Source: a phage. Taken from it: a DNA stretch of 64,000 nt. The DNA lies in assembly GCA_014913405.1 (NCBI GenBank), contig GCA_014913405.1_3931.1; one strand, written 5' to 3'. The position numbers were made by a program, and so were the translations under genes. Shown piece after piece: positions 7,020-63,818 of this stretch (within the stretch, counting starts at the first letter, position 1; each line of letters opens with the position of its first letter). The notes below the pieces were generated by a model. It saw only the letters and a list, made by a program, of their open reading frames with translations. It did not search any database and was not told the DNA's origin.

Positions 7020-7345
7020 TGACTGGTATCACTGCAATCATTGCCATTTTCGCGCTCTATAAGGCATATAAAGCCTATAATCTAGCAAATAAGGCAATCA
7101 CACAACAGGTTAGTAATAGCCTTGTAATGAGCTTTCTAGAGCGGTTGAGCGATGAACAATTAAAGCGGTTAGAAATGAGCTTCAGATTCAGGGCGAGAAC
7201 TTATCAAATCAGCGACATTTTCAAAGATGATTTTCAATTAGTCGATGATTATAATTCTCTGATAAATGCTTTAAATATTAGTGACTTAAAAGACTATCAT
7301 ACTGTAATTGTTCAAGAGTTGAGCAAACGAAAACAAAACTGTTGA
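7013..7345 (+). CDS. Small protein, hypothetical (coupled to upstream gene)
   Basis: ORF overlapping upstream stop. Confidence 0.5.
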   Translation: MLMTGITAIIAIFALYKAYKAYNLANKAITQQVSNSLVMSFLERLSDEQLKRLEMSFRFRARTYQISDIFKDDFQLVDDYNSLINALNISDLKDYHTVIVQELSKRKQNC

Positions 7346-10200: not shown

Positions 10201-10236
10201 TCAATGACTTATAAAAAACTTTAAAAATTATCTTGA

Positions 10237-10262
10237 CAATACCCCTTGACATTGGTAACTTT
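10237..10262 (+). promoter_or_regulatory. Promoter-like element with tandem TTGACA hexamers
   Basis: TTGACAATACCCCTTGACATTGG; same tandem-hexamer architecture as 20701 and 63200. Confidence 0.4.
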
Positions 10263-10400: not shown

Positions 10401-10931
10401 ATGAACAAGTTCAAAGCTATCAACTACATTCGCTCAAATAGTGTCATGTCTAAGCCTGTTAAGGATACCTACGAATTTCGTTGCAATGGGGTGCATTTTG
10501 CAACAATTACCAAATCAGAAAACGGGGCTTATTACATTCATCGCCGTAATGTTTCAACCGTGGTAGTCTCTCACTTTATGCAAGCTGTCGCGGAACTTCT
10601 CCCGCTGTTTTTAGGTCTTTACTTGGATGAGTGTAAAAACGTTCACAGCCACGTTAAAAACATTTTAAACAGTTATAAAATGGCTTATGAACGTTCTATT
10701 CATAATTTGAACAAGTTCTATAAAGCCCCTGAAAATACTGTGTCAATAGCTTATGATGTAAGCGGTGAAATGGTCAATCTCTCCAATGTAGAACAAATTG
10801 GCCTTTATGATTTACGTCCTAGCGGTTATTCTAAGACTCTCGGTGAAGGCTTATCCTTCAATATCAAGAACTTAGAAAAAATTTTAAGAGAAATTGAAAA
10901 AGATATTGACGAGACAATCAAAAATCTGTAA
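10401..10931 (+). CDS. Small early-type protein, hypothetical
   Basis: Conserved CCTAAACTGGAGATTCAAAA leader before ATG. Confidence 0.6.
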   Translation: MNKFKAINYIRSNSVMSKPVKDTYEFRCNGVHFATITKSENGAYYIHRRNVSTVVVSHFMQAVAELLPLFLGLYLDECKNVHSHVKNILNSYKMAYERSIHNLNKFYKAPENTVSIAYDVSGEMVNLSNVEQIGLYDLRPSGYSKTLGEGLSFNIKNLEKILREIEKDIDETIKNL

Positions 10932-11585: not shown

Positions 11586-11601
11586 GGGCTAAATAGCCCC
11601 A
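11586..11601 (+). terminator. Stem-loop (GGGGCTAAATAGCCCC) at end of plus-strand gene array
   Basis: Perfect 6-bp GC-rich stem; weak T-tail. Confidence 0.35.
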
Positions 11602-12059
11602 GATACCTTAAAAGCTCCTTCTCATAGGGGCTTTTTTACGTCTATAAAGAGACTCTATACAGTCCCTTTCCTTTCCTTCCTAGAATCTACCCCACTAATT
11701 CGATAGAGACTATCTCATACCTTAAAAAGCAATAACTCTATAGTCTACTCTATAACCTCTTATCAAATTAACTTAAATAAAAGCCCATAACCCGAAAGGG
11801 AAGGGCAACCACTAAAACGCTCTATAAAGCTCTATAACAGCCTTATCAACCTAACTTAAGCAATCATATTAACCCACTCTAAAAAGCCCTTTATAGAGCT
11901 TCCCAGAGCCTTAAAAGAATCTTATAAGGGTGTGAGCTTTATCATCTCGTTAGCTATCTTGTGAACTACTAAAAAGGGCTTGTTAGTGTCTTAAAAGTAT
12001 GTTATAGGGGCTATAAAGTTACTTCAAAGTTACGTAAAAGAGGCTATAAAGTTACGTAA

Positions 12060-13135
12060 ATGCTAGCCCCCTTAACATTTTCTTAACAATTTCTTAACAA
12101 TCCCTACATAGTTATGCTTTTAAGGCACTTGTTAGAGACTTGTTAGCCCCTTGTTAAATCTCTGTTAAGACCACGTAAAAGCCTTGTAAGAGTCTTTAGC
12201 ATAGCCTTTAAAGCCTCTGTAAAGCCCTATAAAGAGGTGTCTGTATAGTTGGGGTGTAATTACTAGGAAGAGACTTAAAAGAGCTTACAAGGAGCTATAG
12301 AGAGCTTTTAAGAGGGCTATTTAGAGAATCACTAAGAGGGAAAGGGAACGATAAGAAAAGAGATAGTGACCATGTTAATAGCTTGTTAAAAAGATTAAAC
12401 ACTTGTTAGGAACTTGTTAATTATCCCTACAAAATAACTCTTTAAAATTAACTTGTTAGCTCTCGTTAGTTATCTGTTAAGATTCTGTAAAGACTATTCA
12501 GCACTTGTTAGAAAACTGTTACAGCCTTGTTAGTTCTGTTAAGAATCTGTTAAGACTTTTGAAGAGTTGTTAAGAGCTTGAGAGAGTTGTTAAGAGATTG
12601 TTAAGGATATTTTAAAATTTTGCAAAGGGGATGTTACAGGGCTGTTAAGGGCTACCAAGCAGATATACATCTTCTACAGATATTTTTCAGTCCCTTCAAA
12701 GACCCTAAAAAATGACTTGATAGTCCTATTTTATAAAAATTTTAAAATTCTGAATAATTACCTAGACAGTCTTTTAAAAATACAGGTAGAAACAGGCTTA
12801 TAAGATACCTTGTTAGTACCGTGTTAGACCTTGTGAGATAAGGTCTGTAAAGATATTCCTGTTAAGTTTGTTAAAACAGTCTATATAGAGGCTTAGTAGT
12901 GCCTAGTGAACACCTATAGAGGGTAACATAGCTAACCTAGAGATTAAGAGGTGTATAGGAGCTTCTAAGAGGGTGTAGAGAGATGGTTAAGGTGATTGTA
13001 TAGGTTGTTAAGAAGGCTTGTTAGAAGAGTGTTTAGAAGGGCTATACAGAGGGGCTATTAAGACCACTAGATAGATACTAAGATACTATATAGTACTATA
13101 TAACTATATAGAGAGTAAGATTAAGAAGGTTGTTA
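12060..13135. repeat. Iteron-like array: about two dozen copies of (C/G)TTGTTA(A/G) and CTGTTAAG in an ORF-free region
   Basis: Counted by eye; irregular 8-40 bp spacing; no ORF over 60 aa spans it coherently. Confidence 0.75.
13083..13112. repeat. AT-rich tandem repeat (ACTATATA x3), candidate DNA-unwinding element
   Basis: Seen directly next to the iteron array. Confidence 0.5.
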
Positions 13136-25182: not shown

Positions 25183-25257
25183 GGGAGATTGACGGTAATT
25201 GGTAAACCTACCATCCTTAGAAGTTGGTGTTTGAGGGTTCGAATCCCTTGTCTCCTA
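25183..25257 (+). tRNA. tRNA with TAG anticodon (Leu-type) but short variable loop
   Basis: Manual fold, 75 nt. Confidence 0.45.
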
Positions 25258-25267
25258 CCAAATTAAT

Positions 25268-25340
25268 GCAGGTGTAGCAAAATGGTTATGCGGCTGACTC
25301 TTAATCAGTAAGACGATGGGTTCAATTCCCTCCACCTGTA
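25268..25340 (+). tRNA. tRNA-Lys(CTT)
   Basis: Manual fold; paralogous to Lys(TTT). Confidence 0.5.
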
Positions 25341-25349
25341 CCAAACATT

Positions 25350-25422
25350 GGGGATGTAGTTTACATGGTTAAAACATAAGTTTTGCAAACTTAAGTACAG
25401 GGTTCAATTCCCTGCTTCTCCA
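25350..25422 (+). tRNA. tRNA-Ala(TGC)
   Basis: Manual fold; G3-U70 identity pair present. Confidence 0.7.
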
Positions 25423-25431
25423 CCAATTAGT

Positions 25432-25503
25432 GCATCCATAGTTTAAACGGGAAAATTACAGTCTTCCAAACTGAGGTTGAGGGTTCGATTCCCTCTGGAT
25501 GCT
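25432..25503 (+). tRNA. tRNA-Gly(TCC)
   Basis: Manual cloverleaf. Confidence 0.65.
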
Positions 25504-25512
25504 CCAAACAAT

Positions 25513-25586
25513 GCTGCTTTCGTATAATTGGCTATTACACATCCCTTGTAAGGATGGAAATGCAGGTTCGAGTCCTGTGAGCAGCA
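25513..25586 (+). tRNA. tRNA-Thr(TGT)
   Basis: Manual cloverleaf, perfect anticodon stem. Confidence 0.7.
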
Positions 25587-25591
25587 CCAAT

Positions 25592-25681
25592 TCAGAGGTC
25601 AAGTGAAAGACCGCTTTGAGTCAACTGAAGACCGTAACAAATACCACGGAGTTGAGTTAGCGGCACAACTTCAGACCTCTT
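25592..25681 (+). ncRNA. Structured inter-tRNA element E5 (related to E1-E4)
   Basis: CAGAGGTC ... GACCTCT closing stem; internal CTGAAGACCGTAACAAATAC. Confidence 0.35.
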
Positions 25682-25685
25682 TCAT

Positions 25686-25757
25686 ACTCGCTTAGTTTAT
25701 ATGGTAAAACATCACCCTTACAAGATGAAGAAAAAGGTTCAAGTCCTTTAGTGAGTA
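25686..25757 (+). tRNA. tRNA-Val(TAC)
   Basis: Manual cloverleaf. Confidence 0.6.
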
Positions 25758-25761
25758 CCAT

Positions 25762-25836
25762 GTTCCAGTATCCCAATTGGCAGAGGATGCAAGCTCAAAC
25801 CTTGTATTAGTGACGGTTCGAATCCGTCTTGGAACA
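25762..25836 (+). tRNA. tRNA with CAA anticodon (Leu-type) but short variable loop
   Basis: Manual fold, 75 nt; Leu-like D-loop AATTGGCAGAG. Confidence 0.45.
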
Positions 25837-25844
25837 CCAATTTT

Positions 25845-25917
25845 GCAGGATTAGTTCAAATGGAAAGAGCAACAGTCTACGAAGCTGTTAATAGGGGTTC
25901 GAATCCCTTATCCTGCG
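25845..25917 (+). tRNA. tRNA-Arg(ACG)
   Basis: Manual cloverleaf, perfect acceptor. Confidence 0.7.
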
Positions 25918-25937
25918 CCAGATAAAAAGGTGATACT

Positions 25938-26180
25938 ATGCAAACATTAACAGTAGTTGAACATGAAAACTGTGAGAGTATTGAGTTTGTCAGGGTCATT
26001 GGTGTTGAACACCACATTTTCTTAAAAGTGGGATACTTATGTGACCCCGCTAGAGTAGAAAGATTTATACGTGATTGTTTTGGTGGTAGACATCTGAAGA
26101 GTGTTATTTTTGAGACAGTTTTACCAGAAGGTTTAGAAACGAATAATAACATTTACCTCCTTACGAGGATTAGACAATGA
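25938..26180 (+). CDS. Hypothetical protein embedded in tRNA array
   Basis: ORF with AAGGTGA SD. Confidence 0.5.
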   Translation: MQTLTVVEHENCESIEFVRVIGVEHHIFLKVGYLCDPARVERFIRDCFGGRHLKSVIFETVLPEGLETNNNIYLLTRIRQ

Positions 26181-26734
26181 GATACTTAAAGTATGCTTCA
26201 TGGATTTTCTTAGCTTTGTTAGAGCCATTTGCAGCAATCTTAGCAGTTATCTTAGCACCTTTTGTAGTTCCATTCTACAGTGAGAAGAAAGGACACTTAC
26301 CTTTCGGGTTCAGATGGATGGAGACATATGACAACCCAATTGATGGTGATGAAGGTCACGTTAAAAGATGGGCTAATATTAGATGGATTGGTAAACTAGG
26401 TGTCTACATGCAAAGAGTCGGATGGCTCTGGAGAAACAAAGCTTATAACTTCTCTTACCATGTATTAGGAAGAGATGTAAGAGATGTTACTAAGTGGAAA
26501 GGTAATATCAACGTAAGTTCTAACCCTGAAGATAATCAGACTGGTTATCTCCTAATGTGGAACAGTAATGCTTGGGGATTATTCGCTTTTATCCCATCAA
26601 TTAAAGTCTTCGGTAAACAGTTTTACTGGAGAATTTATGTTGGATGGAAACTTAAAAGTGTTGTCCCAGAAGAAAGAGCATTCTCAAGGGAAAGAGTTAT
26701 GTTGGCATTCTTTATTCATCCACTGAGAAAGTAA
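26177..26734 (+). CDS. Membrane protein (N-terminal TM helix, Trp-rich), embedded in tRNA array
   Basis: ORF coupled by ATGA overlap. Confidence 0.5.
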   Translation: MRYLKYASWIFLALLEPFAAILAVILAPFVVPFYSEKKGHLPFGFRWMETYDNPIDGDEGHVKRWANIRWIGKLGVYMQRVGWLWRNKAYNFSYHVLGRDVRDVTKWKGNINVSSNPEDNQTGYLLMWNSNAWGLFAFIPSIKVFGKQFYWRIYVGWKLKSVVPEERAFSRERVMLAFFIHPLRK

Positions 26735-26742
26735 AGATTTAA

Positions 26743-26815
26743 AGGGGATTAGTTTACAAGGTTAAAACCTCGGTCTTTGAAATCGAAGAAGTTGGTTCAA
26801 TTCCAACATCCCCCG
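26743..26815 (+). tRNA. tRNA-Gln(TTG)
   Basis: Manual fold; 1-72 mismatch. Confidence 0.6.
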
Positions 26816-26820
26816 CCAAT

Positions 26821-26896
26821 GCTCCATTACTCCAATTGGCAGAGAGGCCAGACTTAAAATCTGTGTTATGTATCGGTTCGAATCCGATATGGAGTA
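26821..26896 (+). tRNA. tRNA with TAA anticodon (Leu-type), 7-nt variable loop
   Basis: Manual fold, 76 nt. Confidence 0.45.
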
Positions 26897-26904
26897 CCAA
26901 ATTT

Positions 26905-26977
26905 AGCGGTATAGCATAACTGGCAATGCAGCAGTCTCTGAAGCTGTCCTATTAAGGTTCAAATCCTTATGCCGCTG
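26905..26977 (+). tRNA. tRNA-Gln(CTG)
   Basis: Manual cloverleaf. Confidence 0.6.
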
Positions 26978-27011
26978 CCACTTCTAAGGATTCTTACGAG
27001 AGTCCTTAAAT

Positions 27012-27085
27012 GTGGCCTTATCATAAATGGTAATGACCCATGCTGTGAACATGGTCTATACGGGTTCAAATCCCGTAGGTCACCC
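27012..27085 (+). tRNA. tRNA-His(GTG)
   Basis: Manual cloverleaf; discriminator C. Confidence 0.65.
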
Positions 27086-27092
27086 CAATTTA

Positions 27093-27167
27093 TAGTCCAA
27101 GTAGCTTATATGGTTAAAGCGCGTGTCTGAAAAACATGAGAAGAGGGTTCAAATCCCACTGGACTAC
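27093..27167 (+). tRNA. tRNA-Phe(GAA), atypical acceptor/D junction
   Basis: Manual fold. Confidence 0.5.
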
Positions 27168-27185
27168 CAATTTCAAAGGTGCTTA

Positions 27186-27920
27186 ATGAAAGAGATGACA
27201 GAACAAGGTAAGGAGATTTTCAATCTCTTAAAAACCGGTAAAGGGTTTTCTAACCCCCTTATTACTGGTGCAGCAGTTCTCGGTGGAACCGTAGCTGCCT
27301 CTACATCACTTGTAAGCTCTATTAGCTCTGTATCAGACCCTACAGTAAAGGATAAGCTTGTTGCTGCTGGACTTACAACAGTTCTGCTTAACAGCTTTAC
27401 CACGAGTCTGACAAGCACTACATCAACTACCAAAACACTAACAGATTACGGTCAAAAGTCCATTGATGAGTTTTCATCACGTATGCAGGTAGCAAAAGGT
27501 TACTCTAATGTTATGGGTGCAGCAGGTGAACAAGTTGGCTGTACACCATTTAGTGGTATTATGGGTGTTGCTACAGAGTATGGTCAAAAAACTATTGATA
27601 CGATTAACAGTGTACTAGATAGTGTTAATGGTGTGTTAAGTGACTTACAAGATGCTATTGACAAAGGTCTTGATACTATTTCTGATTTAGCTGAGCAAGC
27701 TGTTAGTAAGATTAATGAAGGTATTTCAAAAATTACAGCTTATGCAGATGAAGTTGTGCAGATGATTGAAGAAGAAGCTGCTCTTATTGCAGAGTACCTT
27801 AAAACGAATATCAATGGGTTCTTAGCAGGTATCTTACCAGACTGGTTTGATGATGCTTGTAAAACTGGTGTAATTGACACTATTGCAACACCAGAAATGA
27901 AGAACGCATTACAGAAATAA
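27186..27920 (+). CDS. Hypothetical protein embedded in tRNA array (start moved from track 27123, which lies inside tRNA-Phe)
   Basis: In-frame ATG at 27186 with AAAGGTG SD. Confidence 0.5.
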   Translation: MKEMTEQGKEIFNLLKTGKGFSNPLITGAAVLGGTVAASTSLVSSISSVSDPTVKDKLVAAGLTTVLLNSFTTSLTSTTSTTKTLTDYGQKSIDEFSSRMQVAKGYSNVMGAAGEQVGCTPFSGIMGVATEYGQKTIDTINSVLDSVNGVLSDLQDAIDKGLDTISDLAEQAVSKINEGISKITAYADEVVQMIEEEAALIAEYLKTNINGFLAGILPDWFDDACKTGVIDTIATPEMKNALQK

Positions 27921-27922
27921 AT

Positions 27923-28012
27923 GGAAGATTAACCCTAAAAGGTAAGGGAGCAGTTTGCTAAACTGCCAGTAGCTGAGAAATCGGTGTACCAGTTCAAGTC
28001 TGGTATCTTCCT
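27923..28012 (+). tRNA. tRNA-Ser(GCT), class II
   Basis: Manual fold, 90 nt, perfect acceptor and anticodon stems. Confidence 0.7.
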
Positions 28013-28019
28013 CCAATTT

Positions 28020-28092
28020 GAATCCGTGACAGAAACGGCTATGTGCCTGTCTGCAAAACAGGTTTATAAGGGTTCGAGTCCCTTCGGATTCT
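28020..28092 (+). tRNA. tRNA-Cys(GCA)
   Basis: Manual cloverleaf, standard 73 nt. Confidence 0.7.
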
Positions 28093-54858: not shown

Positions 54859-55188
54859 TTAATCTGCCAACCTTAAATTAAAATTAACACCAAATTTTTC
54901 ACATACTTCCAACATATACTCAAGGGAAACATTCCCAGTGAGGTGGATTATGTTGGATACACGAGCCTGAGAGATACCACAAATTTTAGCAACTTGCTCT
55001 TGAGAAAGACCTCTGGATTTAATCTCTCTCTTAAAACGATGTGCAACGAAGTCTCTCATTTCGTCTACATCCATTGGACAAATATAACTCTCCATTTCAG
55101 CCTCTCTATCAGCCTCCCAATCATCTTGTGGGGCATAAGGGTCAAAAACCTCATTCATCTTTCTTCTTCCGTTTGCGTGAAGTGTCAA
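54859..55188 (-). CDS. HTH (XRE-like) DNA-binding protein
   Basis: LSQEQVAKICGISQARVSNI helix-turn-helix. Confidence 0.55.
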   Translation of the reverse strand: MTLHANGRRKMNEVFDPYAPQDDWEADREAEMESYICPMDVDEMRDFVAHRFKREIKSRGLSQEQVAKICGISQARVSNIIHLTGNVSLEYMLEVCEKFGVNFNLRLAD

Positions 55189-60438: not shown

Positions 60439-63168
60439 TTAGTGTACTTCAAGCCAGCTTTTACCAACCTTACCAGTACCAGTTACCAGTGTTTCACTCT
60501 TTAGTCCTAAGTTCTTAGAGGCTTGCCCGTAATACCAATCAGTGACAGCCTTCACCTCTGCCGTCATACTTTCTGGACATTCCCAACTCGTCTCATCGTG
60601 ATAGGAGCACAATAAACGAGCACCTATAGCTGGTTTGCGACCGTTCAACTTCATCAAACCTTCGTCAATCATACGACGGCAAGCAAGGTTAATTGCCTCG
60701 TTCTGAATCTGACTTTCCGAACCCATGAGCAAATAATTCAATAGCTTATGCGGAGATTTACACCACAACCAAGCTCCAGCAACCTTTACAAAACCTCCTT
60801 TAGAGATTGCAGCAGTCTTACCAAACACCTCTTCAAGTGCCTTTTTAGTTGCTTTGTAGTCAGCTTCCAAGTCATCTAGCAGCTTCTTAATTTTAGGCAA
60901 ACGAATAAAGTAAGTCTGTTTAGTCAGCGCACCTTCCTGAGTAGTTGCAGCTTTAATCGTCTTAGCAAACTTTTCATCACCTGCACCGAACAGTAGTGCA
61001 TAGATACCATTCTTAGCTTTCTTACGACCTTTGCTAATCTCATGAAGAAGATTCTCATCCTGAGTAGCTCGACAAGTCAAGATATCCTGCTCATCATTCA
61101 AGCTAAAGTAAATACTGTTCAGTGTATGTGCATCAGTCCCTGAATAGACAACGTACAGGTCATTCTCAGAGTCATAGCGAAGGTACTTATCAATCTCTGG
61201 GTTTAGGTACTCATCAAAATGTTTGCAGTAATAGCGTCCATCTTCTTGACGAATAAACTCAATCTCTTCTTTACCTTGCGTTACCGCTTTGGTGAAGTCT
61301 TTGTCACCCATAAAGTTACAAAGGAGAACTAGCTGGGCTGAGTTCATGTCTACAGAGACAACATTAGTACCTTCTTCACAAATCCACACTGCCCTCATTG
61401 GTTCCCCATAGACAGCAGCACCAGACGGTACGTTTACAATACCATATTGTGTCATACGTCCAGTTGAAGTACCAAATACCATTGCACCAGCACTAAGGCG
61501 ACCATCTGGACGAATCTGGTTCAGCCAACCTTTCTCGTCATCCTTTGAGTTCTCAATAGTTCTGCGTCTGTGCATCAAAGTGTAGTACTTAGCAATCTTC
61601 TGTCCAAGCTCACCTTCAATCGTATCATAAGATGATTCAGTAAGTTTTGGTGAAGTACGGATTAAGCAAGGTTCAAGCAAATCTGTGTATTTCTTCACGG
61701 ACCAGTTATGCTCAATGTACTGAACACCTTCATGTTCAACATAACTCAAACCACACCGCTCAACCATTTCCTGCCACTTAGGATGTTTTGTAATCATCTT
61801 TTTATTGTCTTTGAAACGACAAACTTTGACAGGGCGACCATCTGAGTCTTTCTTGTAGTTCCAGTCATCTGGAATCCAACCAACTGATTTCAAGTAGTCT
61901 TTAACAACTGCTACCTGAGTCATGCGAGAAACTTCGAACTCAATTGGTGTATATGGTGCATCAATCAAACCTGTGTAGCGACTTGACTCAAGTTCAAAGT
62001 GGTTAACAACGTGACTGTTATAGTACTTCACAGTTTTGACTGTTTTCACTGGCTTCCAGTCTTTGCATTTCTTACCAATCTTTGCATTCAACTCATTGCA
62101 AATTGCACGAGCATCCTTCATTGCTACAAAGCCTTCCTTGTACTCTTCACCAGTTACAGAGTTGGTTGGGGTGTAGCAATTTCTCTTTTCAATGTTAAAA
62201 ATCTTTGTAGTTGGCTTACCAAATGGCTTGATTTCGTATGTCTGCATCTCACCGTTACGTACCTGCTGACGGTACTTTGTCTTAGGGTACTTGGTAATTC
62301 TCTTCAGTCCATCTGCATGACCGAATGCTTCAACATACTCATTCCAAGCTTTTACAAACTCTTCTCCAGTGACTTTACCTTTGGTCTTAATAGTTGGAGG
62401 TAGATGTGGTTCAACCTCTGAAGCAAGCTCATTAGTCAACTTGTCAAGCTCCTTTACATGGAACTCCATAAGCTCCTTATCAGCTTTCCAACCATTGATA
62501 GCTTGTTGACTCATCCAGAAAGATGTTTCTTTAGCTCGCATATAGGTTTCATAAGTATCTATGCCACACTTCTTAAGCTTGAGATACTCATTATCAAGTG
62601 CCCGTTTAGTTTTGGCGTTAATACGGATATCTTCTACAACACGAGTGAAGATTTCTGCATTCCACACACCCCAATGTTCAATCTCTGGTTTACGAACACC
62701 AACACGAGCACCCCATGCAGCCAAGCCATGAGCACCTTTATAGCCTTTTGGAGTTGGCCTATCCATCCACTGAACACGAGACTGAATAAGAGAATCCTGA
62801 AAGAAATTACTCCACGGCTTACATTTTGGATTATCAAAGTTCCATAAATCCGGTGCAATGTGATTGAAAACCCACCAGTCATAACCGAGGCCATTATGGA
62901 TACAAAGTCGTTTTGCCTTTAACGCAAACTCAACACCTTCACGTAAGCCACCCTTAATGTACTTAGTGTACTTGTGACCGAGGATAGGCTCATCTGTAAA
63001 GACCCATACAGGTGGCTCTTCATCGTCAGATTTATAGTCTGCAAAGGCCATTACGTGAACTTTAGTGAACTCAAGGAGTAAACCATCAGTTTCTGTATCA
63101 CCAACTAAATGTAAGTTTTTAAAATCTACGTTTTCCATTTTTACTCCCTCTAAAATCATTAACCTCAT
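60439..63168 (-). CDS. Family A DNA polymerase with 3'-5' exonuclease domain
   Basis: Exo I DTETDG; Pol motif A DMNSAQLVLL; motif B KNGIYALLFG; motif C YHDE. Confidence 0.85.
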   Translation of the reverse strand: MRLMILEGVKMENVDFKNLHLVGDTETDGLLLEFTKVHVMAFADYKSDDEEPPVWVFTDEPILGHKYTKYIKGGLREGVEFALKAKRLCIHNGLGYDWWVFNHIAPDLWNFDNPKCKPWSNFFQDSLIQSRVQWMDRPTPKGYKGAHGLAAWGARVGVRKPEIEHWGVWNAEIFTRVVEDIRINAKTKRALDNEYLKLKKCGIDTYETYMRAKETSFWMSQQAINGWKADKELMEFHVKELDKLTNELASEVEPHLPPTIKTKGKVTGEEFVKAWNEYVEAFGHADGLKRITKYPKTKYRQQVRNGEMQTYEIKPFGKPTTKIFNIEKRNCYTPTNSVTGEEYKEGFVAMKDARAICNELNAKIGKKCKDWKPVKTVKTVKYYNSHVVNHFELESSRYTGLIDAPYTPIEFEVSRMTQVAVVKDYLKSVGWIPDDWNYKKDSDGRPVKVCRFKDNKKMITKHPKWQEMVERCGLSYVEHEGVQYIEHNWSVKKYTDLLEPCLIRTSPKLTESSYDTIEGELGQKIAKYYTLMHRRRTIENSKDDEKGWLNQIRPDGRLSAGAMVFGTSTGRMTQYGIVNVPSGAAVYGEPMRAVWICEEGTNVVSVDMNSAQLVLLCNFMGDKDFTKAVTQGKEEIEFIRQEDGRYYCKHFDEYLNPEIDKYLRYDSENDLYVVYSGTDAHTLNSIYFSLNDEQDILTCRATQDENLLHEISKGRKKAKNGIYALLFGAGDEKFAKTIKAATTQEGALTKQTYFIRLPKIKKLLDDLEADYKATKKALEEVFGKTAAISKGGFVKVAGAWLWCKSPHKLLNYLLMGSESQIQNEAINLACRRMIDEGLMKLNGRKPAIGARLLCSYHDETSWECPESMTAEVKAVTDWYYGQASKNLGLKSETLVTGTGKVGKSWLEVH

Positions 63169-63197
63169 ACATTACTGCAAAAAATTATAAAAAGCAA

Positions 63198-63223
63198 GTT
63201 GACAATGTACTTGACAAGGTGTT
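63198..63223. promoter_or_regulatory. Conserved divergent-junction element GTTGACAATGTACTTGACAAGGTG
   Basis: Near-identical to 20698-20722. Confidence 0.6.
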
Positions 63224-63395
63224 AATCTTTGCGAAGTGGGTTTTTACTTAAAAGGTTACTTAACAGTTTAACTATACAGATACTTTAAAGCTCTTAAAAG
63301 ATTATTTAATAGCTTTTAAAAAGCTTTAAAGTATAACGTATAGAATACGTTAAGATAAAAGATTAAAACTTAATAGTTACTTAAAAGAGGCTTAC

Positions 63396-63818
63396 ATGCA
63401 GAAAATGTTTGTTCACCCAGACATAGCTGACTTTGTTAGAGCTTTGCAGAAGTTGGAAGAACTTGACATTGCTGCTCAACGGGAATATGCTCACCATCAC
63501 AGGAGAATGGTTGATATACAACATGAAATAGAGTTATCAGAAGACTATGAAGATGACTTAAAATGCTCTGTGTTCGAGCACATGAAAGATGTTGCTATAG
63601 CTAGACGTAAAGCTAAAGATACAGTTGCTTTACTAGATTCTCTTAAAAAGAGGTTGCAAAGTGGTACAGACCTGTGTAATCTAGCATCACTGATTAACGA
63701 TGTTGAAACTTCTTGGGACAGGCATTACTATCCACGTTCTGAAAAGACACTTGACTTTTCTTCATCTGAAAACTTAAAATGCTCTAGAAAGAAACTTAAC
63801 CAACTGAGAGAGAAATAA
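63396..63818 (+). CDS. Hypothetical protein
   Basis: ORF 140 aa. Confidence 0.5.
   Translation: MQKMFVHPDIADFVRALQKLEELDIAAQREYAHHHRRMVDIQHEIELSEDYEDDLKCSVFEHMKDVAIARRKAKDTVALLDSLKKRLQSGTDLCNLASLINDVETSWDRHYYPRSEKTLDFSSSENLKCSRKKLNQLREK

Follow-up and report, generated by a model that had tools for sequence, protein, structure and literature searches.

The strong sigma-70 early promoters of coliphages, such as PN25 of T5 and A1 of T7, combine an A-tract resembling an UP element, the -35 hexamer TTGACA, a spacer of 17-18 bp and a -10 region of the TGn/TAnnnT type. Here we describe a variant of this arrangement in a stretch of phage DNA of 64,000 nucleotides (nt) (contig GCA_014913405.1_3931.1 of assembly GCA_014913405.1; the whole stretch is called the window below). 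The 24-nt sequence GTTGACAATGTACTTGACAAGGTG, which contains two tandem TTGACA hexamers (box 1 and box 2), occurs exactly at positions 63198-63221 of the plus strand. It lies at the second of two divergent gene junctions (junction 1, ~20.6-20.85 kb; junction 2, ~63.14-63.40 kb) and is referred to as copy 2; copy 1, with a single mismatch (A instead of T at base 9), is located at 20700-20723 on the same strand. Comparison with related and unrelated phages makes it quite probable that the element is the -35 and spacer part of a host-type sigma-70 promoter for rightward transcription at junction 2. Similarly to PN25 and A1, it has an A-tract, a consensus -35 hexamer, a spacer of 17-18 nt, the -10 positions T-12, A-11 and T-7 and, at junction 2, the TGn extension, and it stands at the head of transcription units. 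In contrast to them, a second exact TTGACA is conserved in the spacer, and the -10 core is weak (3/6). We know of no characterised coliphage promoter with a TTGACA in its spacer, and our literature searches found none.

Conserved, protein-sized elements in the spacer next to the -35 hexamer, with several co-regulated copies per genome, are a feature that the junctions have in common with lambda PR/OR1 and PL/OL1 and with the synthetic tac and PLtetO promoters. Unlike the lambda operators, however, the spacer element here is itself the -35 consensus, its distance from box 1 varies by +/-1 nt, and no repressor is established. At lambda PR', the Q protein binds between -35 and -10, and in the paused complex sigma region 4 makes use of a second -35-like hexamer, TTGACT; this hexamer is situated ~27 nt from the first one and needs a -10-like pause element 1 bp away. 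Both systems have two tandem hexamers of the -35 type and a site for a factor in the region from -35 to -10, and both head long operons containing terminators. Here, however, the second hexamer lies within the spacer at only 11-13 nt from the first, a consistent pause element is missing, and no Q homologue is known.

Direct repeats that begin with TTG and straddle the -35 region of promoters with a poor -10 are also found in the sites of lambda CII and P22 C1 (TTGC-N6-TTGC, with a 10-bp period) and in the pho boxes of PhoB (CTGTCAT, with an 11-bp period). For P22 C1, the motif TTGN6TTGC has been given (PMC4837284). In contrast to these sites, the unit here is TTGACA, a consensus -35, repeated with a period of 12 nt (11-13), and its geometry relative to the -10 is not that of a pho box; as each repeat is a complete -35 consensus, recognition of the -35 requires no activator. 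T4 middle promoters have a MotA box near -30, 11-13 nt from the -10, together with a sigma-70 -10 hexamer, and rely on sigma appropriation by AsiA and MotA. They resemble the junction promoters in the use of host polymerase, in a second upstream element beyond the standard -35 contact and in the middle-class timing of the downstream genes. However, the junction spacers have the form TTGACA-N6-TTGACAA-N2-4 with no TGCTT MotA box, that is, no (a/t)(a/t)TGCTT(t/c)A, and box 2 is centred near -21, not -30. Finally, Arbiol et al. are said to have described, in 2010, mobile PeSL cassettes of T4-type phages, in which an early promoter with a stem-loop is reportedly repeated between genes. Here, too, a short promoter cassette is repeated in the genome, two of its copies share their initial transcribed sequence, and nearly the same cassette is present in unrelated phages; by contrast, there are three copies only, they stand at the heads of major units rather than between small genes of hyperplastic regions, and they are defined by the spacer TTGACA rather than by a stem-loop.

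The element and its two copies

Gene orientation alternates in five blocks across the window, according to the map of its open reading frames (ORFs). In megablast searches both junction regions matched ~260 phage records at 95-99% identity, the closest being Escherichia phage wV8 and the O157 typing phages; therefore, the window belongs to a Felixounavirus (a Felix O1-like myovirus of the subfamily Ounavirinae), and the relative wV8 (88.5 kb, about 98% identical) was used as the complete genome. With up to three mismatches allowed, the window contains copies 1 and 2 only, at 0.00 expected from shuffled sequences, and exact TTGACA-N5-7-TTGACA is found three times against 0.08 expected. A motif search of a complete genome, which the initial sequence-only reading had proposed, was run on wV8 and returned the same two copies, with no third within three mismatches. 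Both copies have the same orientation and are located just upstream of two long plus-strand transcription units.

That reading had placed copy 2 at 63198-63223 and the start of copy 1 at 20698. The sequence of the element and the difference of one position are confirmed, whereas the end of copy 2 is corrected to 63221, 2 nt earlier, and the start of copy 1 to 20700. Its placement of copy 2 between the minus-strand polymerase gene and a plus-strand gene also holds, the latter having its ATG at 63396, except that the polymerase gene more likely starts at 63138 than at 63168. Position 63168 is that of the first in-frame ATG and gives the longest ORF; the ATG at 63138 comes with the Shine-Dalgarno sequence GAGGGAG and is used in Suspvirus and Mooglevirus annotations, and the wV8 annotation uses yet another in-frame ATG, corresponding to window position 63159.

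Some side observations concern the sample and the neighbouring genes. The polymerase-junction query was matched over its full length at ~96-97% identity by Staphylococcus phage SA1 (GU169904.1, 147 kb) and Campylobacter phage A132 (MG065664.1), and over 37% of its length at 67% identity by Listeria phage LPML1 (OK283618.1); at least the SA1 and A132 records are probably mislabelled or chimeric entries. The unit that follows junction 1 encodes a DUF5681 protein, an array of 24 tRNA genes (22884-28092, plus strand) and a 471-aa protein annotated in relatives as vWA or RNA-binding (DUF2828).

Anatomy and conservation of the promoter

The proposed anatomy is given in Table 1. Box 1 would serve as the -35 element, preceded by the A-rich UP-like tract and followed, after a spacer of 18 nt, by TGt-TAATCT, so that transcription would start near 63235. 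Copy 2 would start the rightward unit from the polymerase/gp104 junction, and copy 1 would do likewise for the unit of tRNA and structural genes. Sequence comparison establishes how the element is built and oriented, how its bases are constrained and that it recurs in unrelated phages; we infer that the RNA polymerase of E. coli or Salmonella with sigma-70 initiates at junction 2.

Table 1. Predicted promoter elements and associated features in the window
Feature	Position	Strand	Remarks
A-rich tract ttataaaaagcaag, UP-element-like	63185..63198	+	directly upstream of box 1
Box 1, TTGACA, inferred -35 hexamer	63199..63204	+	6/6 match to consensus
Inter-box spacer ATGTAC	63205..63210	+	unconstrained except for the last base, usually C
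Box 2, TTGACAA, second -35-like hexamer in the promoter spacer, about -24 to -18	63211..63217	+	
TGt-TAATCT, extended -10 (TGn) and weak -10	63220..63228	+	3/6; T-12, A-11 and T-7 present
Predicted transcription start, ~7 nt after the -10	63234..63237	+	inferred from standard -10 to +1 geometry
Junction 2 leader, ~160 nt, CTWWANAG array and small hairpin	63235..63395	+	high conservation across genera
ACTTAAAAGGTT block, initial transcribed region	63246..63257	+	also at junction 1, 20749-20760; the only two exact copies in the window
Copy 1 promoter	20687..20729	+	A-tract; box 1 20701-20706; box 2 20713-20719; -10 TAGGCT 20724-20729; 17-nt spacer
Third double-box promoter, TTGACA-ATACCCC-TTGACA-TTGG-TAACTT	10233..10261	+	box offset 13 nt; -10 at 17 nt
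Cro/C1-type helix-turn-helix protein, 99 aa, acidic N-terminus, candidate box reader	54859..55158	-	inside the leftward replication gene unit of junction 2

Relatives of junction 2 were selected by homology and included Suspvirus EcSzw_1, Mooglevirus Sf19 and Moogle, and Kolesnikvirus FIfi106, SeKF_13 and SPARTY; for junction 1 they were SUSP1, Silverhawkium, Michonne, FIfi106 and SE5. In addition, a motif-blind survey was anchored on genes, its loci being picked solely by the downstream protein (gp104 for junction 2, the DUF5681 protein for junction 1). Both hexamers are exact in 24/24 loci of junction 2 and in 30/30 orthologous loci of junction 1, where the exceptions were one truncated contig and two non-orthologous weak matches; box 1 is exact in all 54 gene-anchored orthologous loci. 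Upstream of the boxes, AAAAAGCAAG is invariant at junction 2 across Felixouna-, Susp- and Mooglevirus, and an A-tract also precedes box 1 at junction 1 and at the other TTGACA-N17/18-TAnnnT sites of the phage.

In every genus examined, box 1 is followed by a TAnnnT hexamer with all three key positions, at a spacing of 17 nt for junction 1 and 18 nt for junction 2. The junction 2 hexamer has a canonical TGn in front of it and reads TAATCT or TAGTCT in all genera (TGtTAATCT, TGgTAGTCT), including GGTGgTAGTCT in Moogle; the extended -10 TG is unconserved in the T4-like set described below. At junction 1, the relatives carry TAGGCT, TAGCCT, TAAGTT or TAGTGT, with T-12, A-11 and T-7 fixed and the interior free; judging from these alignments, this is the constraint expected of a sigma-70 -10 element. 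In the phage as a whole, approximately ten A-tract-TTGACA-N17/18-TAnnnT sites are situated upstream of genes. Predicted single-box promoters include those at 7342, 8205, 24293 and 57549. The -10 hexamers of the double-box sites are the weakest among its promoter-like sites (3/6, against 4-5/6 in the others); they are TAGGCT at 17 nt, TAATCT at 18 nt and TAACTT at 17 nt. All three double-box sites lie between genes on the sense strand, at a distance of 110-160 nt from the start codon that follows.

The third double-box promoter, at 10233, is located within an early gene block upstream of the ORF at 10401, and wV8 and a further Felixounavirus contig keep it as well. Its initial transcribed sequence, GTTCGAGGGGGTTTATCTAAAAGG, is similar to the one at junction 2, TTGCGAAGTGGGTTTTTACTTAAAAGG, and this likeness in sequence suggests a duplicated promoter cassette. 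In Kolesnikvirus FIfi106, an Erwinia phage, the promoters at both junctions are single-box. Kolesnikvirus junction 2 has a plain TTGACA-N17-TACATT at the homologous position, with related sequence after it. FIfi106 has a double box at ~71470 on the minus strand (TTGACA-TTCTAC-TTGACA-GGGGC-TAAAGT, with the -10 at 17 nt), which points into its own ORF-poor, repeat-rich region of ~1.45 kb.

These comparisons alter the initial picture of the element in several respects. The conserved unit is not the 24-mer, as had been claimed, but the two TTGACA hexamers: Susp- and Mooglevirus keep both of them and differ in the bases between, and these six bases, with 8 variants at junction 2, 8 at junction 1 and 15 distinct ones overall, are the most variable in either intergenic region. 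Nor is the arrangement specific to divergent junctions, given the double box inside the early gene block at 10233 and the Kolesnikvirus copy, which is elsewhere again. On the other hand, the proposed shared regulatory function of the two copies appears well supported by the common orientation, the sigma-70-like anatomy and the strong purifying selection; it concerns the plus-strand side only, and no consistent leftward promoter using the boxes was found.

Some further candidates were rejected. The T4-late-like sequence TATAAATA at 20730-20737 is unconserved, Susp- and Mooglevirus carrying AATAAAAC, and the near-miss double boxes at 27658 and 17897, which are within coding sequence and without a -10, are attributed to chance.

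One of these promoters had been predicted earlier in the genome paper of Felix O1 (2010), where 'P41' was described as TTGACA-N15-TATAGG at 21515-21541. In the Felix O1 sequence, 'P41' is copy 1, with box 1 as the -35 hexamer. The same paper found no promoter at the polymerase junction, regarded temporal control as unknown and reported no polymerase-modifying proteins. Copy 2 is intact in Felix O1, and in GenBank records ASO1A and AYO145A promoters have been annotated at both copies on the basis of pattern matches. Thus the promoter itself is already predicted by others, by pattern, for one or both copies; the recurrence of the second TTGACA was not found described. Our literature search yielded no transcriptome or start site map for Felixounavirus and no description of a double box, and the promoter tables of pf16 and phiPMW are single-box.

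Several observations weigh against the promoter assignment. The -10 hexamers are weak (3/6), and at junction 1 the TG abuts the -10 hexamer instead of taking the canonical position, Felix O1 itself having TA there. A simple consensus promoter scanner called neither copy; it missed them because the -10 is weak, and the miss was not taken as evidence against a promoter. The literature search yielded no transcription start site, in vitro transcription or footprint for Felix O1-like phages. In the end-point reverse transcription PCR (RT-PCR) of the Felix O1 paper, ORFs 41/42 and 96-99 were maximal at 25 min, not 5 min; this maximum is not readily reconciled with an unaided strong early promoter and would allow for an activator.

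Double boxes in other phages and in bacteria

The IMG/VR database was scanned with the pattern TTGACA-N5-CTTGACAA-N2-TG, and the same pattern was applied to bacterial and archaeal genomes, with 120 matches listed in each case. Among the viral matches listed, 74 of 120 had TAnnnT at promoter distance: 22 Ounavirinae loci and 52 unrelated contigs, in which this hexamer was mostly near consensus (TATAGT, TATCAT, TATAAT). Among the bacterial and archaeal matches listed, TAnnnT followed the pattern in 5 of 120, about as expected by chance; two of these five (L280 and L364) share the sequence type of viral contigs L068 and L132, and L280 is the contig of L068 in IMG/VR, labelled as a metagenome-assembled genome of Bacillota. 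Therefore, as far as the matches listed are concerned, the design is phage-enriched.

The same layout of box 1 and box 2, with a near-consensus -10 situated 17-18 nt from box 1, is seen in uncultured T4-like phages and in Bacillota-associated contigs. The T4-like core is 91-97% identical to Felixounavirus junction 1 over 33-34 nt, and TGt-TAATCT of junction 2 is homologous to TGtTATAAT of contigs L132 and L068. Many of the unrelated contigs have, as the divergent neighbour, the gene of gp55, the late sigma factor of the T4 type (tblastn, ~52% to an annotated cyanophage g55); a Pfam search of this gp55-like protein gave no match. In a motif-blind survey anchored on g55, TTGACA-N17-TAnnnT was found in 76 of 78 loci. 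The second TTGACA was present in the spacer exactly in 67 of the 76 and with one mismatch in 4 more, at a box offset of 11 nt in 38 loci and 12 nt in 33, the flanks being otherwise variable. Box 2 occurs in only 30 of 63 sigma-70-like sites of the T4-like contigs, and therefore marks a subset of promoters.

In the T4-like contigs (L192-L271 and many of L017-L136), the near-consensus double-box promoter lies beside the late sigma gene g55 and is antisense to all its neighbours, namely a g47-like ORF, an ORF of 124-145 aa and then g55. The start region is conserved as cGGTGTyCCC or TATGTCC, and no ORF, tRNA or Rfam family was found downstream of it. This could be a promoter of an antisense or non-coding RNA, or an origin promoter. 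No cultured relatives of the T4-like or L132-type contigs were found. Matches in Pseudomonas, Yersinia and Proteus were discarded: all are short, those in Pseudomonas and Yersinia lie inside genes, and that in Proteus lies in unannotated DNA with E=0.08.

Conserved leaders

Both leaders are strongly conserved. The block ACTTAAAAGGTT begins downstream of the 24-mer, by 25 nt at junction 1 and by 24 nt at junction 2, and is conserved as (A/T)CTTAA(A/T)AG in other genera. It belongs to a family of sequences with the consensus CTWWANAG, of which the window contains 180, a three-fold excess over the 61 +/- 9 expected. The predicted leader of junction 1 (20736-20853) folds at -28.4 kcal/mol (z = -3.45 against shuffles). 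In its long stem, CCUCU (~20761) pairs with AGAGG in the Shine-Dalgarno region of the DUF5681 gene, and this modelled stem suggests translational control. The hairpin of junction 2 (~63336-63351), AACGTAT-AGA-ATACGTT in the window, is changed to ATGTAT-AAC-ATACAT in Mooglevirus, with changes on both sides in 2 of 7 pairs. A search of the window's leaders against Rfam found nothing, the 24 tRNAs being the only matches.

The CTWWANAG family comprises palindrome-like 8-mers, including CTTAAAAG, CTTTAAAG, CTATAAAG and CTTAACAG, among others; CTTAAAAG alone occurs 28 times against 5.5 expected. They are densest at 11600-13100, an ORF-poor stretch of ~1.5 kb, and form arrays with a spacing of ~10-13 nt in both leaders, at 63247-63387 and 20738-20828. 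Members of the family are also found in Kolesnikvirus leaders.

Discussion

Two interpretations of the second box carry most weight. At junction 2 of every genus, and at junction 1 of the genera other than Felixounavirus, box 2 is not followed by a -10-like hexamer at 15-19 nt; lacking a usable -10, it is therefore a part of the spacer, where it occupies about -24 to -18 and ends 4-6 nt before the -10. Our preferred interpretation, speculative and somewhat short of an even chance, is that box 2 is read by sigma-70 region 4. This region, the reader of box 1, would also dock on box 2, so that promoters with a weak -10 would offer the polymerase a second register for capture or holding, by which their strength or timing would be tuned. 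Such an interpretation is favoured by the identity of the hexamer with box 1, usually with the same preceding C, by the elastic offset between boxes (11, 12 or 13 nt) at a fixed -35 to -10 spacing, by the presence of the double box in phages of evidently different hosts, and by a well-formed double box in a Kolesnikvirus without the helix-turn-helix (HTH) protein considered below. Against it, no established mechanism is known to us in which a -35 hexamer so close to the -10 (4-6 nt) is used, and the near-absence of the design, among the matches listed, from bacterial chromosomes in a promoter-like context argues for something specific to phages.

A phage factor is the basis of another interpretation, which we regard as possible but not likely: the boxes may form an operator for a phage regulator that switches the three double-box promoters together, with the 99-aa HTH_3 protein as the candidate. 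The regulator would bind the TTGnCAA repeats, direct or pseudo-inverted, and would thereby cover both the -35 hexamer and the spacer. This is compatible with the promoter assignment and competes solely over the role of box 2. Operators in the -35 and spacer region are a classical phage arrangement, exemplified by lambda OR1 and OL1, and a phage regulator agrees with the phage-enriched distribution of the design. TTGACAA is a near-palindrome, so that the pair of boxes reads as an inverted repeat at 6/7 positions; the symmetry is only a pseudo-dyad (TTGaCAA versus TTGtCAA), however, and the spacing of 11, 12 or 13 nt across copies and lineages lacks the constancy of a Cro/C1 operator and would not be tolerated by a rigid dimer. 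The candidate protein matches Pfam HTH_3 (4.9e-10) and, below threshold, Sigma70_r4 (1.2e-4), and belongs to phrog_1373, 'transcriptional regulator'; solved structures related to it are generic XRE-family regulators only and yielded nothing on operator specificity. A tblastn search detected it in 261 phage records, whose distribution over organisms is almost that of the double-box junctions (Felixouna-, Susp- and Mooglevirus), and did not detect it in the Erwinia and Hafnia Kolesnikviruses, whose junction 2 promoter is single-box. However, this phyletic link is a single contrast, and 61 of 132 wV8 ORFs (46%) are likewise absent from the Kolesnikvirus genome; the profile agrees with a link but is uninformative because of this background, and the Kolesnikvirus genome without the HTH protein nevertheless keeps a double-box promoter. 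Moreover, unrelated phages would each need a regulator recognising exactly the sigma-70 -35 consensus, and no homologue was found on the T4-like contigs, which are fragments only. The -10 hexamers of the double-box promoters, the weakest in the genome (3/6 versus 4-5/6), and the maximum of the downstream genes at 25 min by RT-PCR are as expected of regulated promoters, and together they weakly favour regulation of some kind.

The remaining explanations have considerably lower probability. It is unlikely that the element serves the leftward polymerase gene, or both directions, as a shared activator site or through a bottom-strand -35 TTGTCA. Each box does read TTGTCA (5/6) on the bottom strand, the genes on both sides of junction 2 fall into the same RT-PCR class, and at junction 1 the scanner called TTGTCA-N18-AATAGT with TG, but this arrangement is not repeated at junction 2, which has 5 extra nt. 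The bottom-strand TATAAT at 63189-63184 stands at 9-10 nt from box 1 and at 21 nt from box 2, spacings that are both unworkable, and it is unconserved (TGAAAC in Suspvirus, TGCAGA or TGAAGA in Mooglevirus); furthermore, the copies at 10233, in Kolesnikvirus and in T4-like contigs are not at such divergent junctions. Similarly, we find it very unlikely that box 2 loads a lambda Q-like antiterminator, in which case a factor bound to the spacer would join the polymerase at a promoter-proximal sigma-dependent pause and cause read-through of intrinsic terminators in the two long rightward units. The wV8 annotation has several terminators inside both units, the Felix O1 paper states that it is unknown how transcription passes numerous terminators, and the conserved leaders have a common block at about +11 to +24. 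In lambda PR', however, the second TTGACT follows the -10 instead of lying within the spacer; neither box 2 nor the predicted start is followed consistently, at both junctions, by a pause element resembling a -10; the wV8 annotation contains no Q-like gene (no systematic or profile search for Q families was made); and the double box at 10233 stands in front of a short block of early genes. Promoters frequently occur in tandem or overlap, and AATACT stands 15 nt after box 2 at junction 1 of the window, which would make box 2 the -35 of a second promoter with a start ~12 nt further downstream. This is highly improbable, as no TAnnnT occurs 15-19 nt after box 2 at junction 2 of any genus, at junction 1 of Susp- and Mooglevirus, at 10233 or in the T4-like contigs. 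The lowest probability is given to an origin-associated role, in which the junction promoters would prime or open replication origins. T4 oriF and oriG use a promoter with an unwinding element, both copies are found where gene orientation and cumulative GC skew switch, and the T4-like promoter is antisense to all its neighbours, with no ORF, tRNA or Rfam family downstream. Yet the skew here merely mirrors gene orientation and cannot separate the two ideas, and all three copies in the window have a downstream gene with a conserved leader and a ribosome-binding site.

We tentatively suggest, as a possibility and not as a likely conclusion, that the double -35 box defines a phage-specific promoter class conserved independently in Ounavirinae, uncultured T4-like myoviruses and Bacillota-associated phages, with box 2 read by sigma region 4 or its phage mimic. 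It would then have a function undescribed for bacterial promoters, either as a second capture or holding register or as a common timing switch.

Felix O1-like phages are the classic typing phages of Salmonella and widely used candidates for biocontrol and therapy. The analysis places a probable start for two of the four transcription units of such a phage, identifies a design that these starts have in common with a third site, and specifies the exact bases to mutate. The TTGACA in the spacer is a small, testable puzzle on how RNA polymerase or a phage factor reads promoter DNA, and the double-box promoter could be a useful part for synthetic promoters.

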